Assembly: GCA_951406725.2 (NCBI GenBank)
Contig: OX597833.1
Span: 66,340,001-66,404,000 of the forward strand
DNA from: Octopus vulgaris
Lineage: Eukaryota
Direction of reading: 5' to 3'
DNA length: 64,000 bases
Shown: positions 27,328 through 63,651 of the stretch, one piece after another
How positions within the stretch are numbered: the stretch's first letter is position 1
Layout: each line of letters begins with the position of its first letter
Made by a program: the position numbers and the translations under genes
The notes under the pieces: model-generated
The model's input: only the letters and a program-made list of their open reading frames with translations
What the model was told of the DNA's origin: nothing
Database searches by the model: none

Positions 27328-27409
27328 TGTCGGTGGTAGGTTTCGAACTTACGCGGGGAGACCCCGATGGATTTCTAGTCCATCGCCTTAACCACTCGGC
27401 CACGACGAC
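27328..27409 (-). tRNA. tRNA-Ser(AGA), possibly a pseudogene
   Basis: GTCGTCGTGGCCGAGTGGTTAAGGCGATGGA-CTAGAAA-TCCATCGGGGTCTCCCCGCGTAAGTTCGAAACCTACCACCGACA: 82 nt, long variable arm, T6 Pol III terminator just downstream; two acceptor-stem and one T-stem mismatch. Confidence 0.9.
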
Positions 27410-37899: not shown

Positions 37900-38885
37900 A
37901 TGCACACAGTTTACATACTTTTGATATATCTTATAGGTGGAAGAATATTGTGTTTGTCGACCGGTTTCGCTTTCGCTAATCATGACATTGAAATTATTGT
38001 AATTTCGTACTTTCGTAAGATTTTAATCCATGTTGTATGTGGGGAAGTTTGTGAATGAATAAAAAACCAAGTAGAAAAATCTAAGGGGAGATAATAGGTG
38101 ATCGTTATTACTAGGGACAGAGGAAGTAATTGCTCATCTTTTCGGGGAAGAGATAAGTAAATACATATGCAAAAACTCGGTTCCAAGTATTTCCATCAGA
38201 CACTATTGTGTACATCCTTTTTGCTAAATTAAAAGGGATATTTATTTTGATATGTTTCAGGTGGCGTGAGCTAAACAGAAGATATTGCTTCGAGTCTGTT
38301 GGTGTATGATAAATCTCAGTAACAATTTGGTTGTTGTCTGTTTTTATCATAATATCCAAGAAAGGGAGCTGTTCTTTGCTATATTCCATTGTAAATTGGA
38401 TATTAGGGTTTATATTGTAGTATTGATTTAAATGCCAAAGGTTCATTAATGGCATCCTTCCTAATGATAAAGTAGTCATTCAGATATCTTTCCCAGTTTT
38501 CTTTTATATTTAAAAGTGAAATGGAGATCCATAGTTTTGCAGTGACAATTCACAAATGATTAATTCAAAACATTCCATTATTAGGTTTGCAAGAACAAGG
38601 GCTGCTTTCGTTTCCGTCTCAATTTTGATGATAGTAGGTGACATCAAACAGGAAATAATTGTTCAGACGTATAAATTTTAAAGTTTCAAGAATAGAAACA
38701 TGATTAATGCGTTCCTGGAGTACTTCGGGGTACTTTTCCAGCCAGAATTTCATTGCTTCCATTCCATAGTCATGTGGGATGTTGGTGTAAAGATTAATAA
38801 TATCGAAGGAAACCAATAAGGTCGCTTCATTAGTTCGTTTTGGTGATAGGTGTGAGAGCATAGCTAGATGGACTCTAATGAAATT
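37900..38885 (-). mobile_element. decayed PLE RT with degenerate HHR (37955-37987)
   Basis: [47 protein letters not shown]; tgtc ATGATTA gc gaaa gc GAAA ccgg TC gaca. Confidence 0.85.
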
Positions 38886-38902
38886 AGCATATATGTATAT
38901 AC

Positions 38903-38935
<33 letters not shown>

Positions 38936-38963
38936 TATATATGTATACATATATATATATGTG

Positions 38964-38996
<33 letters not shown>

Positions 38997-39187
38997 ATGT
39001 ATATGTATATATATGTGTGTGTGTATATATGTATATATATGTGTGTGTGTATATGTATATATATGTGTGTGTGTATATATATATATATGTGTGTGTGTGT
39101 CTCTGTATATATATATATATCTATATATATATACATACATCAGCCTTAAATATATATATATGTATGTATTTACACATACACACACAC

Positions 39188-39240
<53 letters not shown>

Positions 39241-39704
39241 CATGCATACATACACACACACGCACACACATATATACATACGTACGCACACAAATATAAA
39301 TATATATGTATATGTATATAAAATTAACTATATCGTCTGTTTGTTTCAGTCATTGGATTGCAGCCATGCTGGGGTATTACTTTGACGGTTTAAGTTGAAT
39401 AAACTACCTCCAGTACTATTTTAAAGCCTAGTCGCTATTCTGTCGGTTATTTTTGCTGAGCCGCTAATTCACAGGGAGCTTAAACAAAGCAACACCAGTT
39501 GTCAAGCGGTGAGGATGGATAAACGCAATCACAAAACATACACGCACACACACACACGAACACACACACACACACACATGTATACACGACAGGCTTCTTT
39601 CAGTTTCCGTTTCCCAAATCCAATCACAAAGCTATAATAAAGATACCCTGACAATGACACCACCACAGGTGAACTGGAGCCGGAACCATATGTTTAAGAG
39701 GCTA

Positions 39705-49239: not shown

Positions 49240-49486
49240 TTTTATATATATATATATAAAAGGCAGTTTGTCTGTCTGTGTGTCTGTCAGGATGTACCCT
49301 CACCCTGACCACGGCTTTCAACCGATTCTGATGAAACTTGACACACACATAGCCCAATGTCATAATTCAAAACTAACGCAGCGAAAATTTTGAAAAGTTC
49401 ACCCAGTTCTGAAAAAAATCGATAAATTCGACATGTAAAAAGGTAACGGGCATTGCATACCCGGGCAACGCCGGGCTATGCTGGTA

Positions 49487-49487
<1 letters not shown>
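49240..49487 (+). mobile_element. short non-autonomous Helitron
   Basis: tatataaaaggcagtttgtctg start; hairpin cccgggcaacgccggg; degenerate GTAG end; 5' part shared with 63267-63651. Confidence 0.7.
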
Positions 49488-49535
<48 letters not shown>

Positions 49536-49539
<4 letters not shown>

Positions 49540-49740
49540 TGTGTGCCGTTGGCGATTTTTTCCCCTCCGTCTTCCCTTCTCTGGATCTTTCCTTTTCCTA
49601 TGTTTCTGACGAAGAGTTCCGCTCGAAACGTTAAACCCTCCTTCTTTCCTTCTTTCCTGAGCATCCAATAATACTATACTTGTTCCACGTCCTCGCGATG
49701 TTGTGTTTTCTCTTTGTGTTTTCATGTTTGGATTAACTAT
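49536..49740 (+). mobile_element. ~200-bp non-coding unit in (TA)n with minimal HHR (49602-49636)
   Basis: gttt CTGACGA a gagt tcc gctc GAAA cgtta aac; (TA)n on both sides. Confidence 0.7.
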
Positions 49741-49748
49741 ATATATAT

Positions 49749-49914
49749 AGGCGCAGGAGTGGCTGTGTGGTAAGTAGCTTGTTTACCAACCACATGGTTC
49801 CGGGTTCAGTCCCACTGCGTGGCACTTTGGGCAAGTGTCTTCTACTATAGCCTCGGGCCGACCACAGCCTTGTGAGTGGATTTGGTAGACGGAAACTGAA
49901 AGAAGCCCGTTGTA

Positions 49915-49971
<57 letters not shown>

Positions 49972-50195
49972 TTATGTGTATGTGTGTGTGTTTGTGTGTC
50001 TGTGTTCCTCCCCCTAGCATTGCTTGACAACTGATGCTGGTGTGTTTACGTTTCCCGTCACTTAGCGGTTCGGCAAAAGAGACCGATGTAATAAGTACTG
50101 GGCTAACAAAGAATAAGTCCCGGGGTCGAGTTGCTCGATTAAAAGGCGGTGCTCCAGCATGGCCGCAGTCAAATGACTGAAACAAGTAAAAGAGA
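49749..50195 (+). mobile_element. SINE family A, full length
   Basis: Family consensus. Confidence 0.92.
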
Positions 50196-50227
50196 TAAAA
50201 TATATATATATCTACACGCACACACAT

Positions 50228-50258
<31 letters not shown>

Positions 50259-50757
50259 GAGAGAGAGTTAAGTTCGGTTTATCTATCACCATAGTGATAG
50301 ATAAACATGAATCCGTCAACTTCCTAGATGTTAGCTTTAATCTAATTACTAATATTTACAAGCCTTATCGTAAGCCTAACTCTAATCTGAAATATATTAA
50401 TTCAGAAAGTAATCCTCGAAGCTGTGCTAAAAAATTTCTAATTTACAATATTTCTAGAAGAATTTCTGCCTTATCTTCTTGTGAGGAAGTTTTCGATAAG
50501 AATTCTGATTACTATAATATAGCCCTTAAAAAGGCCAGTTACAGTAGGAAAATTGAATACCGAGATTTTTCTAGCAATGTTTATACTGGTAAATCGAAAC
50601 TTACTAGTAATGGATTCGATTTTAAATGTTCCAAATCTGAATGGAAGGGTAAATATAAATCAGGGAATAACAATAATGAGAGTAATCCTTTAATTCCAGT
50701 GACTAATGATCGGAAATATAATTATAATTAAGTGTTAAAAGGTTATAATTCTAAGAT

Positions 50758-50979
50758 CGCCATGTTGATTCGCTAGCTTCTGCACGCATTTTTTTCTCTC
50801 CTTTTTTTTTCTCTCCTTGTTTCTCTCCTTGTTTCTTTTCTGTGTATCTTTCTGTCAAAGAGCGTAGGCTCGAAACGTAAAAGACTTGTTTTATTTATAT
50901 TCTTGAGCGCCATACTAATACAATTGTTTGTTTGTATTCCACCTGCCTTCGTCTTTTGTTTATTTTCATAAAGGTTCCC
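50758..50979 (+). mobile_element. 222-bp insertion with degenerate HHR (50847-50884) and 16-bp TSD
   Basis: gttataattctaagat at 50742-50757 and 50980-50995; tcttt CTGTCAA a gagc gtag gctc GAAA cg TA aaaga. Confidence 0.8.
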
Positions 50980-51361
50980 GTTATAATTCTAAGATGGTCT
51001 ATAAGGTGAATAATTTAGGTAATTCTCATTTAGTTTCGAACAAGAACATTATATGGTATGTTATTCCCTTTGCCAGTCAATTTAAAAATTAACTTTGTTG
51101 GGGTGGTGCATAAATTGTTTTTAAAACACTTCAATAAAAAAAGTAGGTATTATGAGATTTTGAACCTGAGATTCATTAAGGCTGCTTTTTCTGTCTCTCG
51201 GAATTTATCTCAGATTATTTCTTCTATTAATGAAAAGAAATCATCTGGTTTTTATCTTCGAGATAACTTGTTTGGTTTTTAGCGAGATAAATTCCATTCG
51301 TACCAATGTTAATGATTTTCTCAATAGCCAGTTTGGTAGCGAGGGTTTGAATTCTAATATA

Positions 51362-51961
51362 TATTTCTTTATTGCCCACAAGGGGCTAAACATAGAAGGG
51401 ACAAACAAGGACCAGACAAAGGGATTAAGTCGATTATATCGACCCCAGCGCGTAACTGGTACTTATTTAATCGACCCCGAAAGGATGAAAGGCAAAGTCG
51501 CCCTCGGCGGAATTTGAACTCAGAACGTAAAGACAGACGAAATACCTATTTCTTTACTACTCACAAGGGGCTAAACACAGAGAGGACAAACAAAGACAGA
51601 CAAACGGATTAAGTCGATTATATCGACTCCAGCACGTAACTGGTACTTAATTTATCGACCCCGAAAGGGTGAAAGGCAAAGTCGACCTCGACGGAATTTG
51701 AACTCAGAACGTAAAGACAGAGGAAATGCCTATTTCTTTACTACTCACAAGGGGCTAAACACAGAGAGGACAAACAAGGACAGACAAACGGATTAAGTTG
51801 ATTATATCGACCCCAGCGCGTAACTGGTACTTATTTAATCGACCCCGAAAAGATGAAAGGCAAAGTCGACCTCGGTGGAATTTGAACTCAGAACGTAACG
51901 GCTGACGAAATACCGCTAAGTATTTCACCCGGCGTGCTAACGTTTCTGCCAGCTCACCGCC
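51362..51961 (-). mobile_element. SINE family B trimer with 16-bp TSD
   Basis: One head plus three ~185-bp bodies; tttgaattctaatata at 51346-51361 and 51962-51977. Confidence 0.92.
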
Positions 51962-52458
51962 TTTGAATTCTAATATAAGTTGCAATAATAGTGGGAGGAA
52001 TAGATTTTTACTTAATGATAATTCAATTGTCGACGGTTCAAGTAGGGGTGAAAATTCTCTTTGTGATTGTGGAAACAAAGAAAATTGCTTATTTGATAAT
52101 TTTTGTAAACGCAGGGAAGTAGTTTATCAAGTTCAAGTTATTTCTGAAGGTAATGGTTACATTTATATTGGTTCTACAAATTATATTAAGAGAAGGGTTT
52201 CGAATCATTACCATTCATTAAGCAACAGGAATAGGGCTTCTTCTACAAGTCTTAGTAATTTCATTTGGAATCTTGAAGATAATAAAACGTTCTTTATTGA
52301 ATGGAGCATTTTATAGACGGTCTTGGCTTATAGGAATGGTAACAGGTTCTGCTCTCTTTGTTCTGAGGAATTGTTTTCGATTTTATTTTCTAGGAGAAGG
52401 CTGCTGAACTCTAAATCTGAAAGGAGTTTTTTTCTGTGTTCATAGGAATTAATGTGTG

Positions 52459-53650
52459 ATTAAAAATTTTAACAAAGAAGTCCATTATGGGTTTTTTATT
52501 CCATCGTATTTTATTGTTGATTCAGCGGTTATTGAAAGTATGTTTCACTCTTCGTATTTACTACTCAAGTTGGTTCCTCTCGTATTGGTTTAAAAAAAAT
52601 TTAAATTAAAATTCTTAAGATATTTTGAGTGTTTTCATTTACGTTCAGGCGCAGGAGTGGCTGTGTGGTAAGTAGCTTGCTAACCAACCACATGGTTCCA
52701 GGTTCAGTCCCACTGCATGGCATCTTGGGCATGTGTCTTCTGCTATAGCCCCGGGACGACCAATGCCTTGTGAGTGGATTTGGTAGACGGAAACTGAAAG
52801 AAGCCTGTCGTATATATGTATATATATATATATATATAAGTGTGTGTGTATATGTTTGTGTCTGTGTTTGTCCCCCTAGCATTGCTTGACAACCGATGCT
52901 GGTGTGTTTACGTCCCCGTAACTTAGCGGTTCGGCAAAAAGAGACCGATAGAATAAGTACTGGGCTTACAAAGAATAAGTCCCGGGGTTGATTTGCTCGA
53001 CTAAAGGCGGTGCTTCAGCATGGCCGCAGTCAAATGACTGAAACAAGTAAAAGAGTAAAAGAGTAAAAGAGTAAAGAGTAAAGAGTTCGTCTGTTATTGT
53101 GAGGCGGTGGGTGGGTGGGTTTTACATTTAATTATCTTGCAACCGTTTCGATTTTTTTGTTTATTTATTTATTTACTAATTGACCCCATGCCGTCAAAAT
53201 TGACGGCTAATTGTAGTGTTTTTGTATTTAGATAAGGTACAAAATAAGGTACAATAAAAACATTCCCTTCAAAATGAAAAGGACCACGTGGTTATTATTG
53301 TACCTTATTTTGTACCTTATCTAAATACAAAAACACTACAATTAGCCGTCAATTTTGACGGCATGGGGTCAATTAGTAAATAAATAAATAAATAGAAAAA
53401 ATCGAAACGGTTGCAAGATAATTAAATGTAAAACCCCCACCGCCTCACAATACGTAAATGAAAACACTCAAAATATCTTAAGAATTTTAATTTGAATTTT
53501 AAAAAAAACCAATACGAGAGGAACCAACTTGAGTAGTAAATACGAAGTGTGAAACAGTGTTTATTATACTTTCAATAACCGCTGAATCAACAATAAAACA
53601 AGATGGAATTAAAAAAACCCATAATGGACTTCTTTGTTAAAATTTTTAAT
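52459..53650. repeat. ~355-bp inverted repeat at the PLE 3' end; left arm split by a SINE
   Basis: 52459-52646 plus 53093-53257 is the reverse complement of 53295-53650. Confidence 0.88.
52647..53085 (+). mobile_element. SINE family A inserted in the left inverted-repeat arm
   Basis: Family consensus; absent from the right arm. Confidence 0.92.
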
Positions 53651-60755: not shown

Positions 60756-61234
60756 TATACAATTAAAGGCTCCTAAATAAAGATGCCCAGTGCTGGGAAC
60801 ACAAAAAGGGGATGAATTTATCGAGAGTGAAAATCAAAAACATTTACCGATAATTTAAACAACTCGTACCGCGGTTTCTGCTTCTTTCTAGCAAAACACA
60901 GAATATGTTTGCTAAGGCTGGCTTCATCAGCGAGTCGCCTGAATTTAATCGAGGTCCGCAGCGATGTGGGACTATATGTTAAACCCAACTACTAGCAGAT
61001 CTTAACTTTTCAAATCTCTGCGCAGACGCTGCGGACCTCGATTAAATTCAGGCGACTCGCTGATGAAGCCAGCCTTAGCAAACATATTCTGTGTTTTGCT
61101 AGAAAGAAGCAGAAACCGCGGTACGAGTTGTTTAAATTATCGGTAAATGTTTTTGATTTTCACTCTCGATAAATTCATCCCCTTTTTGTGTTCCCAGCAC
61201 TCGGCATCTTTATTTAGGAGCCTTTAATTGTATA
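60756..61234. repeat. near-perfect 208-bp inverted repeat (63-nt spacer) with an HHR in each arm
   Basis: 60756-60963 versus 61027-61234; one mismatch seen. Confidence 0.95.
61055..61128 (+). ncRNA. hammerhead ribozyme motif (mirror copy at 60862-60935, -)
   Basis: actcg CTGATGA a gc...tagcaaa..tttgcta...gc a GAAA ccgcgg TA cgagt. Confidence 0.8.
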
Positions 61235-61348
61235 ACCACATGATTAATATTTTTCTATATGAATAATATTTTCGTCTTATGACTAATTCGTCTTTTGTGC
61301 TGGGCACCTGGTAGTAAATAATATTACTACCCTTCTTGTTTATATTCG

Positions 61349-61423
<75 letters not shown>

Positions 61424-61633
61424 ATGTATATATATATATATATGTATATATGTATATATATATATATATGGGTGTGTGTGATTGTGTATAGAAGAATATA
61501 TTAATAAAAAGAATTCCAACCTTGTCTGATTTTCACGTTTTATTTACAATCTTATAATGATATATTATAAGATAATATATTATAATTGAATAAAATAAAA
61601 TGAAATAGTAGAATGTTAAATATTCATTCTGAT

Positions 61634-61678
61634 TGAACTAGTACTTTCATGCATTGAATTCTGCAATCTTCGGGTTCA
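61634..61678 (-). ncRNA. HHR motif in the PLE 3' region (CUGA->CCGA)
   Basis: tgaac CCGAAGA ttgca..tgcat GAAA gtac TA gttca. Confidence 0.7.
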
Positions 61679-62172
61679 TGTAGTAGTGTTGACAGTCATG
61701 CTTCACAATTTTTGACTGTAGCAAGATGAGTGATTCTGTGCTATAAATACAGCTGGGTAGGCTCCAGAGTGCTAGGTTTTGCAAACTGTATTCTGACCAA
61801 TCAGTGTGTAGTATCACTCAATTACTTAAGCTGATTGGTTGGTTGAGCTGATTGGTTTAGGCATCACGCTTTGTTGGACAGGTCAAGAGTCCTGTATCTT
61901 GACCCTGGCCGAAGCAGCAATTGTTGGGTTATTTTTAGAAATGTTGTAAATATCCTTTGTCAGAGATTTTTATATTTTTATATTTCAATTGTCATCATCA
62001 TCATTGTCAGCACCTTAATTATTGTTGCTAGTGGTGATGGTGGTGGCAATATAACTTTTAACCCTAAATAAGATAATTTTCCTGCTATCTTCGTCTTGAT
62101 CACCTTTAGTATTGTTGTTGTTGTTAGTGGTCATGGTCGTAGCAGTGGAAGTAATACCTCTAAGTATTATTA

Positions 62173-63250
62173 TTATTGCTTATTTAGCTTGGGTTCGAAT
62201 TTATCAATAAAATTCTTTTCTTTGATTTTCCTCTCGATTTCACTTGGGCTGTGTAATTTGTAGAATGGAAATATTATATATATTTTCCGACCACATGTTG
62301 CTAGGTGGTTACTCAAAGGTATCTGACGGACCTCTGGGTCTCTAATCTGTTGCCGGTGTACACGTGAGCGTTCTAATAGTGCGTTTCCCGTCTGACCTAC
62401 ATATATTTCTTCACAATTTGGGCATTTGATGCAGTAAATTAAATTTCTGCTTTTGCAGTTCATATTCGCGTTTGTGAATATTTTCCCGGTTTTTGTGTTT
62501 ATATATTGACCGGTATGTATGAATTGGCATGTGCCACATCGGCTATCATTGCATTTAGATACCGTGAATGTTTGGTCTTTGTTGCTGAGGTCAAATTTTG
62601 CCTTTGTTAGTAATGTTTTCAAGTTTTTAGGCTGTCTTTTACTAAGCACCATAGCTCGATCCTTGATTATGTCTTTTAATTCATTACTTTGGGCAATGAT
62701 TGGTAGGTTTGCTTTGGCAATGTTGAAGATATTCTGGTGACATGGGTTGTGTGTCACTATGAATGGTATGACTTGTTCTTGTTTTCCTCTTCCTTGGGTT
62801 GTCCTAAGTTGTTGTATAGGTATTTTTATAGCCCGCTGTATGCCATTTTCTATAAGTAGAGATGGGTATTTTTGTTTGAGCAAAAATTCTCTTAGTTCTA
62901 TTAGGCGTTTGTTCCTGATATTTGCATCTTCTACAATAGTACAAATTCTTCTGGCTAGGCAGTATGGGATGTTACGTTTTGTATGTGGTGGATGGCACGA
63001 CTTAAAATTTAGGTATTGATGTGTGTCTGTGTGTTTATAGTATATATCTGTGGTGATGGTGGTGTCTTTTTTAATTACCATTATATCCAGGAATGGTAAT
63101 TTGGTACTACTCATCTCCTTTGTAAATTTGAGAGATGGGTGTAGGTTGTTCAGGAGGATATTGAACTCTTCCAGAGTATTTAGAGATTCTGTCCAGATTA
63201 TGAAACAGTCGTCTAGGTATCTCTTCCATGCCTTTTCAATATACTTTCTA
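62173..63250 (-). CDS. PLE reverse transcriptase C-terminal half plus GIY-YIG endonuclease (5'-truncated; element spans ~61498-63250)
   Basis: WKRYLDDCF, LPFLDIMV, YLNFKSCHPPH, CNDSRCGTC, NLIYCIKCPNCEEIYVGQT..R...H, E..FI..F...LN; open frame ~360 aa. The ORF-track start (63366) lies inside the adjacent Helitron. Confidence 0.95.
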
Positions 63251-63266
63251 AATATATATATATACA

Positions 63267-63651
63267 CTAGCAGTATCGCCCGGCGTTGCTCAGGTTTGTA
63301 AGGGAAATAACTATAAAGCATTTTTAGAGAGTTATAGCCAAAAAATAGCAAAAAAATGGAAAACAAATGATGGTAAATTTTTTTTGAGAGTTAAAAAAGG
63401 TAGAGTTGCGTCCCCTAGACGGTCTGTGGTTTGGGTTTCTAATTCTCGACCCCATGTCGAATTTATCGATTTTTTTCAGAACTGGGGGAACTTTTCAAAA
63501 TTTTCGCTGCGTTAGTTTTGAATTATGACATTGGGCTATGTGTGTGTCAAGTTTCATCAGAATCGGTTGAAAGCCGTGGTCAGAGTGAGGGTACGAGAAA
63601 ACAGACACACAGAAACACGCACAGACAAACTGCCGTTTATATAGAGAGAGA
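63267..63651 (-). mobile_element. non-autonomous Helitron (mosaic)
   Basis: Minus strand starts TC(tctctctatataaacggcag) and ends in the hairpin plus CTAG. Confidence 0.82.

Follow-up and report, generated by a model that had tools for sequence, protein, structure and literature searches.

Features at the locus

The window analysed here is a 64,000-nucleotide stretch of Octopus vulgaris DNA, in which a 222-nt insert (50758–50979) lies between two copies of the 16-mer GTTATAATTCTAAGAT (50742–50757 and 50980–50995). This 16-mer occurs at no other site in the window and cannot be extended on either side, which bears out the insert size and the exact flanking repeat given in the original prediction. 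The insert also proves to be nested in a PLE, as had been proposed: the host is a decayed PLE with RT motifs to the left of the insert and GIY-YIG to its right. The relevant features, all on the + strand, are:

49536–49740, +: solo pLTR of a sister PLE family, a separate insertion, with a canonical A6 core
50268–52452, +: host, a decayed PLE with the RT's C-terminal part plus a GIY-YIG (E 7.5e-6)
50742–50757, +: left duplication copy; its last 4 nt (AGAT) are also the parent sequence at the putative RNA start
50758–50979, +: solo pLTR from a Neptune-type PLE, unambiguous portion; over its last 155 nt it shares 96.8% identity with the upstream pLTR in full-length copy L222
50847–50884, +: minimal type I hammerhead, from its sequence, predicted fold and layout as described in the main text of PMC4209133
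50847–50851 and 50880–50884, +: hammerhead stem I
50852–50858, +: hammerhead core C3–A9, with a family-wide U6 (50855) and a private G8A (50857)
50860–50871, +: hammerhead stem II, preceded by a bulged A and followed by G12–A14
50875–50878, +: hammerhead helix III, a loopless palindrome (ACGT); predicted cut after 50879
50980–50995, +: right duplication copy; its first 6 nt (GTTATA) coincide both with the element 3' end and with the AT-rich pLTR/5'UTR junction found in full-length copies

The host PLE is interrupted by the 222-nt insert and by a 184-nt repeat array. The latter comprises three repeats (51346–51977), has its own exact 16-bp duplication (51346–51361 and 51962–51977) and is presumably a SINE array. 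The host translation has a CxCX5C linker, no inner cysteines or CCHH in GIY-YIG, and CxxC and CxH around E and N; by these motifs it would be a Hydra-clade PLE, following the definition in PMC8557442. An inverted repeat of 110 nt and 97% identity (53152–53400), resembling a PLE inverted arm, lies immediately 3' of the host. Elsewhere in the window there are (i) fragments of another PLE reverse transcriptase (38114–39323, − strand); (ii) a head-to-head inverted pair (60780–61300) of a different family, whose canonical-core hammerhead combines a long stem II with a CCGCGG helix III; (iii) a serine-like tRNA match (27328–27409, − strand; 46 bits) with acceptor-stem mismatches, probably a pseudogene or SINE head; and (iv) a very young PLE family (61480–63230, − strand; L061–L063) with a 4,271-bp tandem unit, two ORFs, copies that are ~99% alike, (TA)n targets and two preferred 3' ends 46 nt apart. 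No GAAAC-type hammerhead was seen in the pLTR of this young family.

Parentage of the insert

Two elements of the window were rejected as the parent. The host PLE is ruled out, and the young PLE at 62176–63390 has an unrelated unit and 3' end, the insert matching just 3 of 30 of its loci. Our results reveal that (i) the unit lies 203–852 nt downstream of an ORF, on the same strand, in 29 of 30 loci picked by RT/EN DNA alone; (ii) some copies of the insert family continue upstream into PLE coding sequence; and (iii) loci L218 and L222 share a layout of pLTR, AT-rich junction, 5'UTR, ORF and second pLTR. Because the unit lies downstream of an RT/EN ORF, recurs upstream and matches the L222 upstream pLTR at 96.8%, we identify it as a pLTR, and we regard it as nearly certain that the insert is the solo pLTR of a coding PLE. 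The original description of an ORF-less unit is accurate in that the insert has no ORF, but this is because it is merely the end piece of an ORF-bearing PLE.

The L218 reading frame stays open over 1,098 codons and includes RVT_1 (E 6e-8), a linker of the form CX4CxxC and an end of GIY-YIG type. Judged by its motifs, the parent would be of the Neptune type. Read by eye, the L218 translation has a CX2-5CxxC linker and cysteines within the GIY-YIG core, which are common to Neptune and Nematis (PMC8557442). The insert family is multi-copy, as expected (2,482 candidates, 40 of them scored; at least 41 matches at 90–100%), shows (TA)n-biased insertion together with tandem and inverted structures, and has the first ATG of its long ORF ~0.7 kb beyond the hammerhead. 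An array on contig C6 consists of 4.47-kb units that are 99.7% identical, so a sister subfamily must have been mobile recently. No tRNA was called in the insert with Rfam, in agreement with the earlier statement that it has no tRNA head and is not a standard SINE.

Taken as one locus, the insert is an ordinary dead transposon fragment. It represents a genuine TPRT-type insertion in which a Neptune-type pLTR stands alone, and this kind is already known. What sets it apart is a U6 core conserved throughout the lineage, for which an A6 sister family serves as control, plus an empty site with microhomology at both junctions.

The U6 hammerhead

The motif has the features of a minimal type I hammerhead, i.e. 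stems I and II (both of which form in the predicted fold), a bulge after A9 and a palindromic 15.2–16.2, but it departs from the invariant core CUGANGA / GAAA / UH. U6 is present in 14,238 of 14,734 exact matches, and the window copy additionally carries G8A. With the rest of the 31-letter motif fixed, the remaining exact matches have A (140) or C/G (356) at position 6. The consensus core therefore reads CTGTTGA and not the restored CTGACGA that had been predicted, because U6 is family-wide. When copies were selected by 3' sequence outside the motif, T6 was found in 69 of 70, 23 of 23 and 18 of 22 copies, counts that omit rows without an alignable motif (20 of 90, 7 of 30 and 8 of 30, respectively; the latter two sets matched fewer than 24 of 32 motif letters and are mostly 5'-truncated copies). 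A6 occurs in 2 of 22 copies of the most diverged subfamily; no A6 subfamily was found in the insert family, where the 140 A6 matches are near mutation level.

The sister family at 49536–49740 has the same layout, as originally noted, and differs at position 6, where 3,332 exact matches have A and 45 have some other base. At position 4 of stem I, the pair is C–G in the insert family and G–C in the sister family, and the sister unit is linked to an endonuclease ~1.7 kb upstream at one of three extended loci.

Subfamily comparison bears on whether the motif is maintained. Between the consensuses of subfamilies A and C, 38 of 175 aligned sites are different, and the 39-nt motif contains none of these; in subfamily B the motif differs at position 7 only, while the flanks diverge among all three; and between subfamilies r1 and r2 the motif differs at position 17 only. 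Positions 7 (N) and 17 (H) are those free in the hammerhead core (PMC3088659), and since the subfamily changes within the motif are confined to them, the pattern suggests that the motif has been under selection in master elements. Because loop II is likewise unchanged between subfamilies, the constraint on the block may stem from protein binding or promoter function instead of catalysis.

As far as sequence comparison goes, the U6 hammerhead has likely been maintained by selection in master elements, probably as a weak, dimer- or protein-dependent cutter or as a binding scaffold. Changes at position 6 lower activity, and a natural A6C hammerhead from a phage shows weak cleavage in Mg2+ that improves in Mn2+ (PMC3088659, PMC7151607). 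The window copy is probably catalytically dead, its G8A breaking the 3–8 pair. In cofolding, the minimum-energy structure differs from a double hammerhead, and the helix III palindrome alone contributes −3.7 kcal/mol. Rfam reports no hammerhead in the whole window at gathering thresholds, nor at E up to 10 in 49400–51200. A U6 core is unreported in the hammerhead-variant literature that we found, although Lunse et al. 2017 or the supplements of PMC4209133 may list one. We also observed a (C/T)GAGC element at 50904–50910, ~25 nt past the cleavage site, which every subfamily and the sister family retain. Pairing of this element with the stem II 3' strand is conceivable, but it is absent from the minimum-energy fold.

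Empty site and junctions

Among relatives of the host PLE, the 16-mer is single in all 22 rows that reach the site (19 distinct places, from 25 non-self loci) and was therefore duplicated upon insertion. Its AGAT ending, seen in both window copies, is absent from all host relatives that reach the site, so the host copy had mutated before the duplication. Of the 30 best copies, most of them within (TA)n, 29 have GTTAT directly 3' of the unit, and the parent PLE reads TCAGAT immediately 5' of the unit. Element and target thus have equal claim to 6 nt of sequence at the 3' junction and to 4 nt at the 5' junction, and the duplication is 6–16 bp long. The 16-bp TSD of the original prediction thus stands as regards its exact flanks and single-copy empty site, but it is not pure target: 10 of its 16 bases match the element's own ends, leaving the middle 6 bp as target only, and the insert including both microhomologies spans 50754–50985.

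The 6-nt match at the start of the duplication suggests a place for the nicked bottom strand to anneal to the RNA in TPRT, and GTTATA in the right duplication copy would be the priming site. The duplication is readable here because the target is not a microsatellite. The clean empty site thereby reveals the use of microhomology at both junctions, which (TA)n targets normally conceal. The earlier claim of target-primed insertion is supported.

5' ends of family copies

We sampled the first 90 of 3,102 exact 3'-end matches, all of them on contig C1; the sample contains linked loci (L188–L190, L327/L328 and L350/L351), and two of its solo calls are 72–75% alignments. In 36 of these copies the 5' end falls at −12 to +12 of the unit start; the others comprise 24 shorter, 28 longer and 2 ambiguous copies, with just 2 of the 90 ends lying between −13 and −115. 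The peak bin is no richer in AT/TA than the bins upstream. Copies of the sister family show comparable clustering, 27 of 30 (selected by hammerhead) starting within −8 to +18 of TCATTC. Both peaks coincide with what we take to be initiator-like hexamers (TCAGAT and TCATTC). The 5'-end cluster near the start of the window copy likely marks the RNA start, as judged from these alignments. D. virilis Penelope has an internal promoter in the corresponding region (PMC2377424), with a start ~120 nt before the hammerhead when PMC2377424 and PMC4209133 are combined.

Junction-bearing copies, i.e. the first 30 of 163 exact matches, provide a comparison. The upstream pLTR stops at the peak point in 1–3 of the 23 such copies that reach it, compared to 36 of 66 in the 3'-end sample (Fisher p 5e-4 at worst); within subfamily r2 alone, the contrast between terminal and junction-bearing copies is weak (p 0.02–0.12). 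That upstream pLTRs rarely stop at the peak argues against both an RT barrier and recombination. A start at the peak also predicts pLTR–ORF–pLTR copies that begin there, and just 1 of the 30 (L253) has a clean beginning at the putative start, which counts against run-off. Most junction-bearing copies derive from longer (multimeric or circular) templates. The base at the 5' junction is G in 15, A in 12 and T in 73 of the first 100 of 208 copies, a flat result for a cap-derived G; the 13 G-junction loci viewed comprise 5 in GA repeats, 2 long copies and 6 with a lone G, A being about as common.

Proposed mechanism and alternatives

The direct observations are the pLTR identity, the empty site, the 6-nt 3' and 4-nt 5' junction matches and the sharp 5'-end cluster. 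With a probability of roughly 0.75, we propose that the solo pLTR was inserted into an older, decayed PLE by TPRT begun inside the element RNA and likely running off the RNA 5' end; for the run-off from the RNA start taken separately, the odds are only slightly favourable. Transcription would start ~4–8 nt upstream of the unit, at the initiator-like TCAGAT, and the transcript would extend past the hammerhead and the AT-rich junction to include the 5'UTR and ORF. The GIY-YIG nuclease would nick AT-rich DNA, usually (TA)n and here the chance GTTATA; the nicked strand would anneal to the junction and prime RT ~210 nt from the RNA start; and the cDNA would end at the RNA start and be joined via AGAT, giving a 6–16-bp duplication. 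Since the copy extends across the cleavage site, its template was RNA that had not been cut. In an anole PLE, RT likewise initiates inside the RNA, requires sequence past the pLTR–ORF junction and uses uncleaved RNA (PMC11167929).

Ordinary 5' truncation, in which RT from the 3' end of a long RNA falls off and the peak arises from AT microhomology or RNA structure, is the usual fate of PLE copies (bioRxiv 10.64898/2026.07.22.740005). It would account for the 28 of 90 copies that are long with scattered 5' ends, for the 24 shorter than the unit and for the commonest junction (−2, 14 of 90), an AT that matches (TA)n flanks. We consider it unlikely, since it leaves unexplained why 36 ends fall within 25 nt and 2 in the next 100 nt upstream, why AT-richer upstream bins hold few ends, why RT traverses the same sequence in junction-bearing copies and why the sister family has its own peak. 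A solo pLTR could also remain after both pLTRs of one full-length copy had recombined, in the manner of retroviral solo LTRs; the target duplication would be retained in this case too, and a full-length copy (L222/L253) does start at the same point. Recombination or deletion has been proposed for rotifer solo pLTRs (PMC3846280). But in junction-bearing copies the upstream pLTR begins at scattered points, so that recombinants of such copies would not peak, and the number of these copies is small (163 exact matches, compared with 3,102 3' ends), which makes this origin very improbable.

The remaining alternatives treat the unit as an element in its own right. A self-propagating SINE-like non-autonomous family, with an internal promoter and a TA tail and copied by the parent enzyme, would be consistent with the dominance of solos in the older subfamily (22 solo versus 4 long) and in the sister family, and with a short pyrimidine-tract duplication common to the window copy and 13 others among the 30 top matches. 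Yet both subfamilies yield solo and long copies with the same diagnostic letters, the pyrimidine-tract duplications vary in form and one carrier (L008) extends upstream, and the anole enzyme requires RNA downstream of the pLTR that solos lack (PMC11167929); we therefore rate this possibility as distinctly improbable. The original prediction had left a choice between a retrozyme and a solo pLTR, of which the latter stands. A retrozyme monomer would be a ~220-nt circular RNA, formed by hammerhead cleavage and ligation and inserted via a PLE enzyme. Its type I hammerhead, low GC (38%) and duplication of more than 4 bp are matched here, and three head-to-tail copies separated by TA runs occur at L009; pLTR plus 5'UTR mini-arrays at 6 of 30 junction loci, and at L290 with four 492–493-bp units, would also be in keeping with it. 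The unit is, however, the pLTR of a coding element, mostly a monomer in (TA)n, with fixed, unpermuted ends; tandems occur in just 1 of the 30 top matches and the window insert is monomeric; one folded family copy shows no excess structure (z −0.27 versus 100 shuffles); the minimal hammerhead has a U6 core and a loopless helix III; and the mini-arrays consist of longer units, each with its own junction. We give this explanation next to no weight.

Mini-arrays

At the same 6 of 30 junction loci, the sequence jumps from the 5'UTR back into the pLTR region. Mini-arrays or dimers of the pLTR with up to ~300 nt of 5'UTR, each with private joints, were observed at L290, L291, L233, L239, L241, L244, L248 and L249. 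The arrays at L290 (contig C8) and L291 (contig C2) have 492- and 468-bp units with a joint private to each locus, and the four units of L290 are near-identical and end in the usual TA tail. These mini-arrays look like products of repeated template jumps or of small circles, and they are possible retrozyme seeds. Contigs of presumed RNA runs contain words of the family; in these assembled contigs, neither a 3'-to-5' back-joint of the unit nor a spliced pLTR is listed, an absence that carries no weight.

Implications and comparison with known systems

The role of the hammerhead for PLEs is an open question, as stated in PMC8557442 and PMC11167929. Here, two sister families in one genome, each with thousands of copies, carry U6 or A6 at a normally invariant base and provide a natural comparison of cleavage and scaffold function, in which the U6 lineage otherwise keeps the motif intact. 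The fixed-start solos make a testable prediction of the RNA start and offer an in vivo parallel to internal RT initiation, and descriptor searches that demand CUGANGA overlook the entire U6 lineage. More tentatively, a wider scenario may be drawn: the U6 hammerhead would still cleave (as a dimer, with an element protein or in Mn2+) and would have been selected through successive masters with at least 14,000 copies; the solo pLTRs would be cDNAs produced by run-off, marking where PLE transcription begins; and template jumps from there back to the 5'UTR would seed new retrozyme-like arrays.

Like EN+ PLEs of the Neptune type, the parent has an RT, a CX2-5CxxC linker, a C-terminal GIY-YIG, partial tandems, inverted arms, (TA)n targeting and a ~200-bp pLTR with a hammerhead (PMC8557442, PMC3846280). 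Solo pLTRs and 8–10-bp duplications have been described for rotifer PLEs (PMC8557442, PMC3846280); compared with EN+ PLE pLTRs, the octopus solos have one preferred start, a U6 core and a readable duplication. The part of PMC13282606 covered does not mention hammerheads. With the minimal hammerheads of metazoan PLEs, the octopus motif shares a short stem I, a base bulged after A9, G10.1–C11.1, a palindromic loopless helix III and a mostly dispersed, single occurrence (PMC4209133). It differs in having U instead of A6 throughout the lineage, the main text of that paper naming a U3–A8 core change alone.

Poseidon_Ac provides an in vitro counterpart, in which RT starts inside the RNA near the pLTR junction, uncleaved RNA is used, product length tracks the RNA 5' end and the hammerhead is protein-assisted (PMC11167929). 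It belongs to a different clade. The octopus junction matches the TA target, but the Poseidon_Ac start site has no such homology to its target, a difference that counts against the proposed mechanism. In Poseidon_Ac the hammerhead and the beginning of the ORF overlap, whereas the first ATG of the octopus long ORF is ~0.7 kb further on. Animal non-LTR retrozymes are similar in their type I hammerhead, small size, low GC and PLE-derived or PLE-mobilized nature, and the mini-arrays fit their layout (PMC7229834, bioRxiv 10.64898/2026.07.22.740005); the preprint derives retrozymes from pLTRs. Retrozymes are tandem, canonical-core, self-paired circles (PMC7229834, PMC7761336), whereas the octopus unit is the monomeric end of a coding element, with a minimal variant core and no notable self-pairing.
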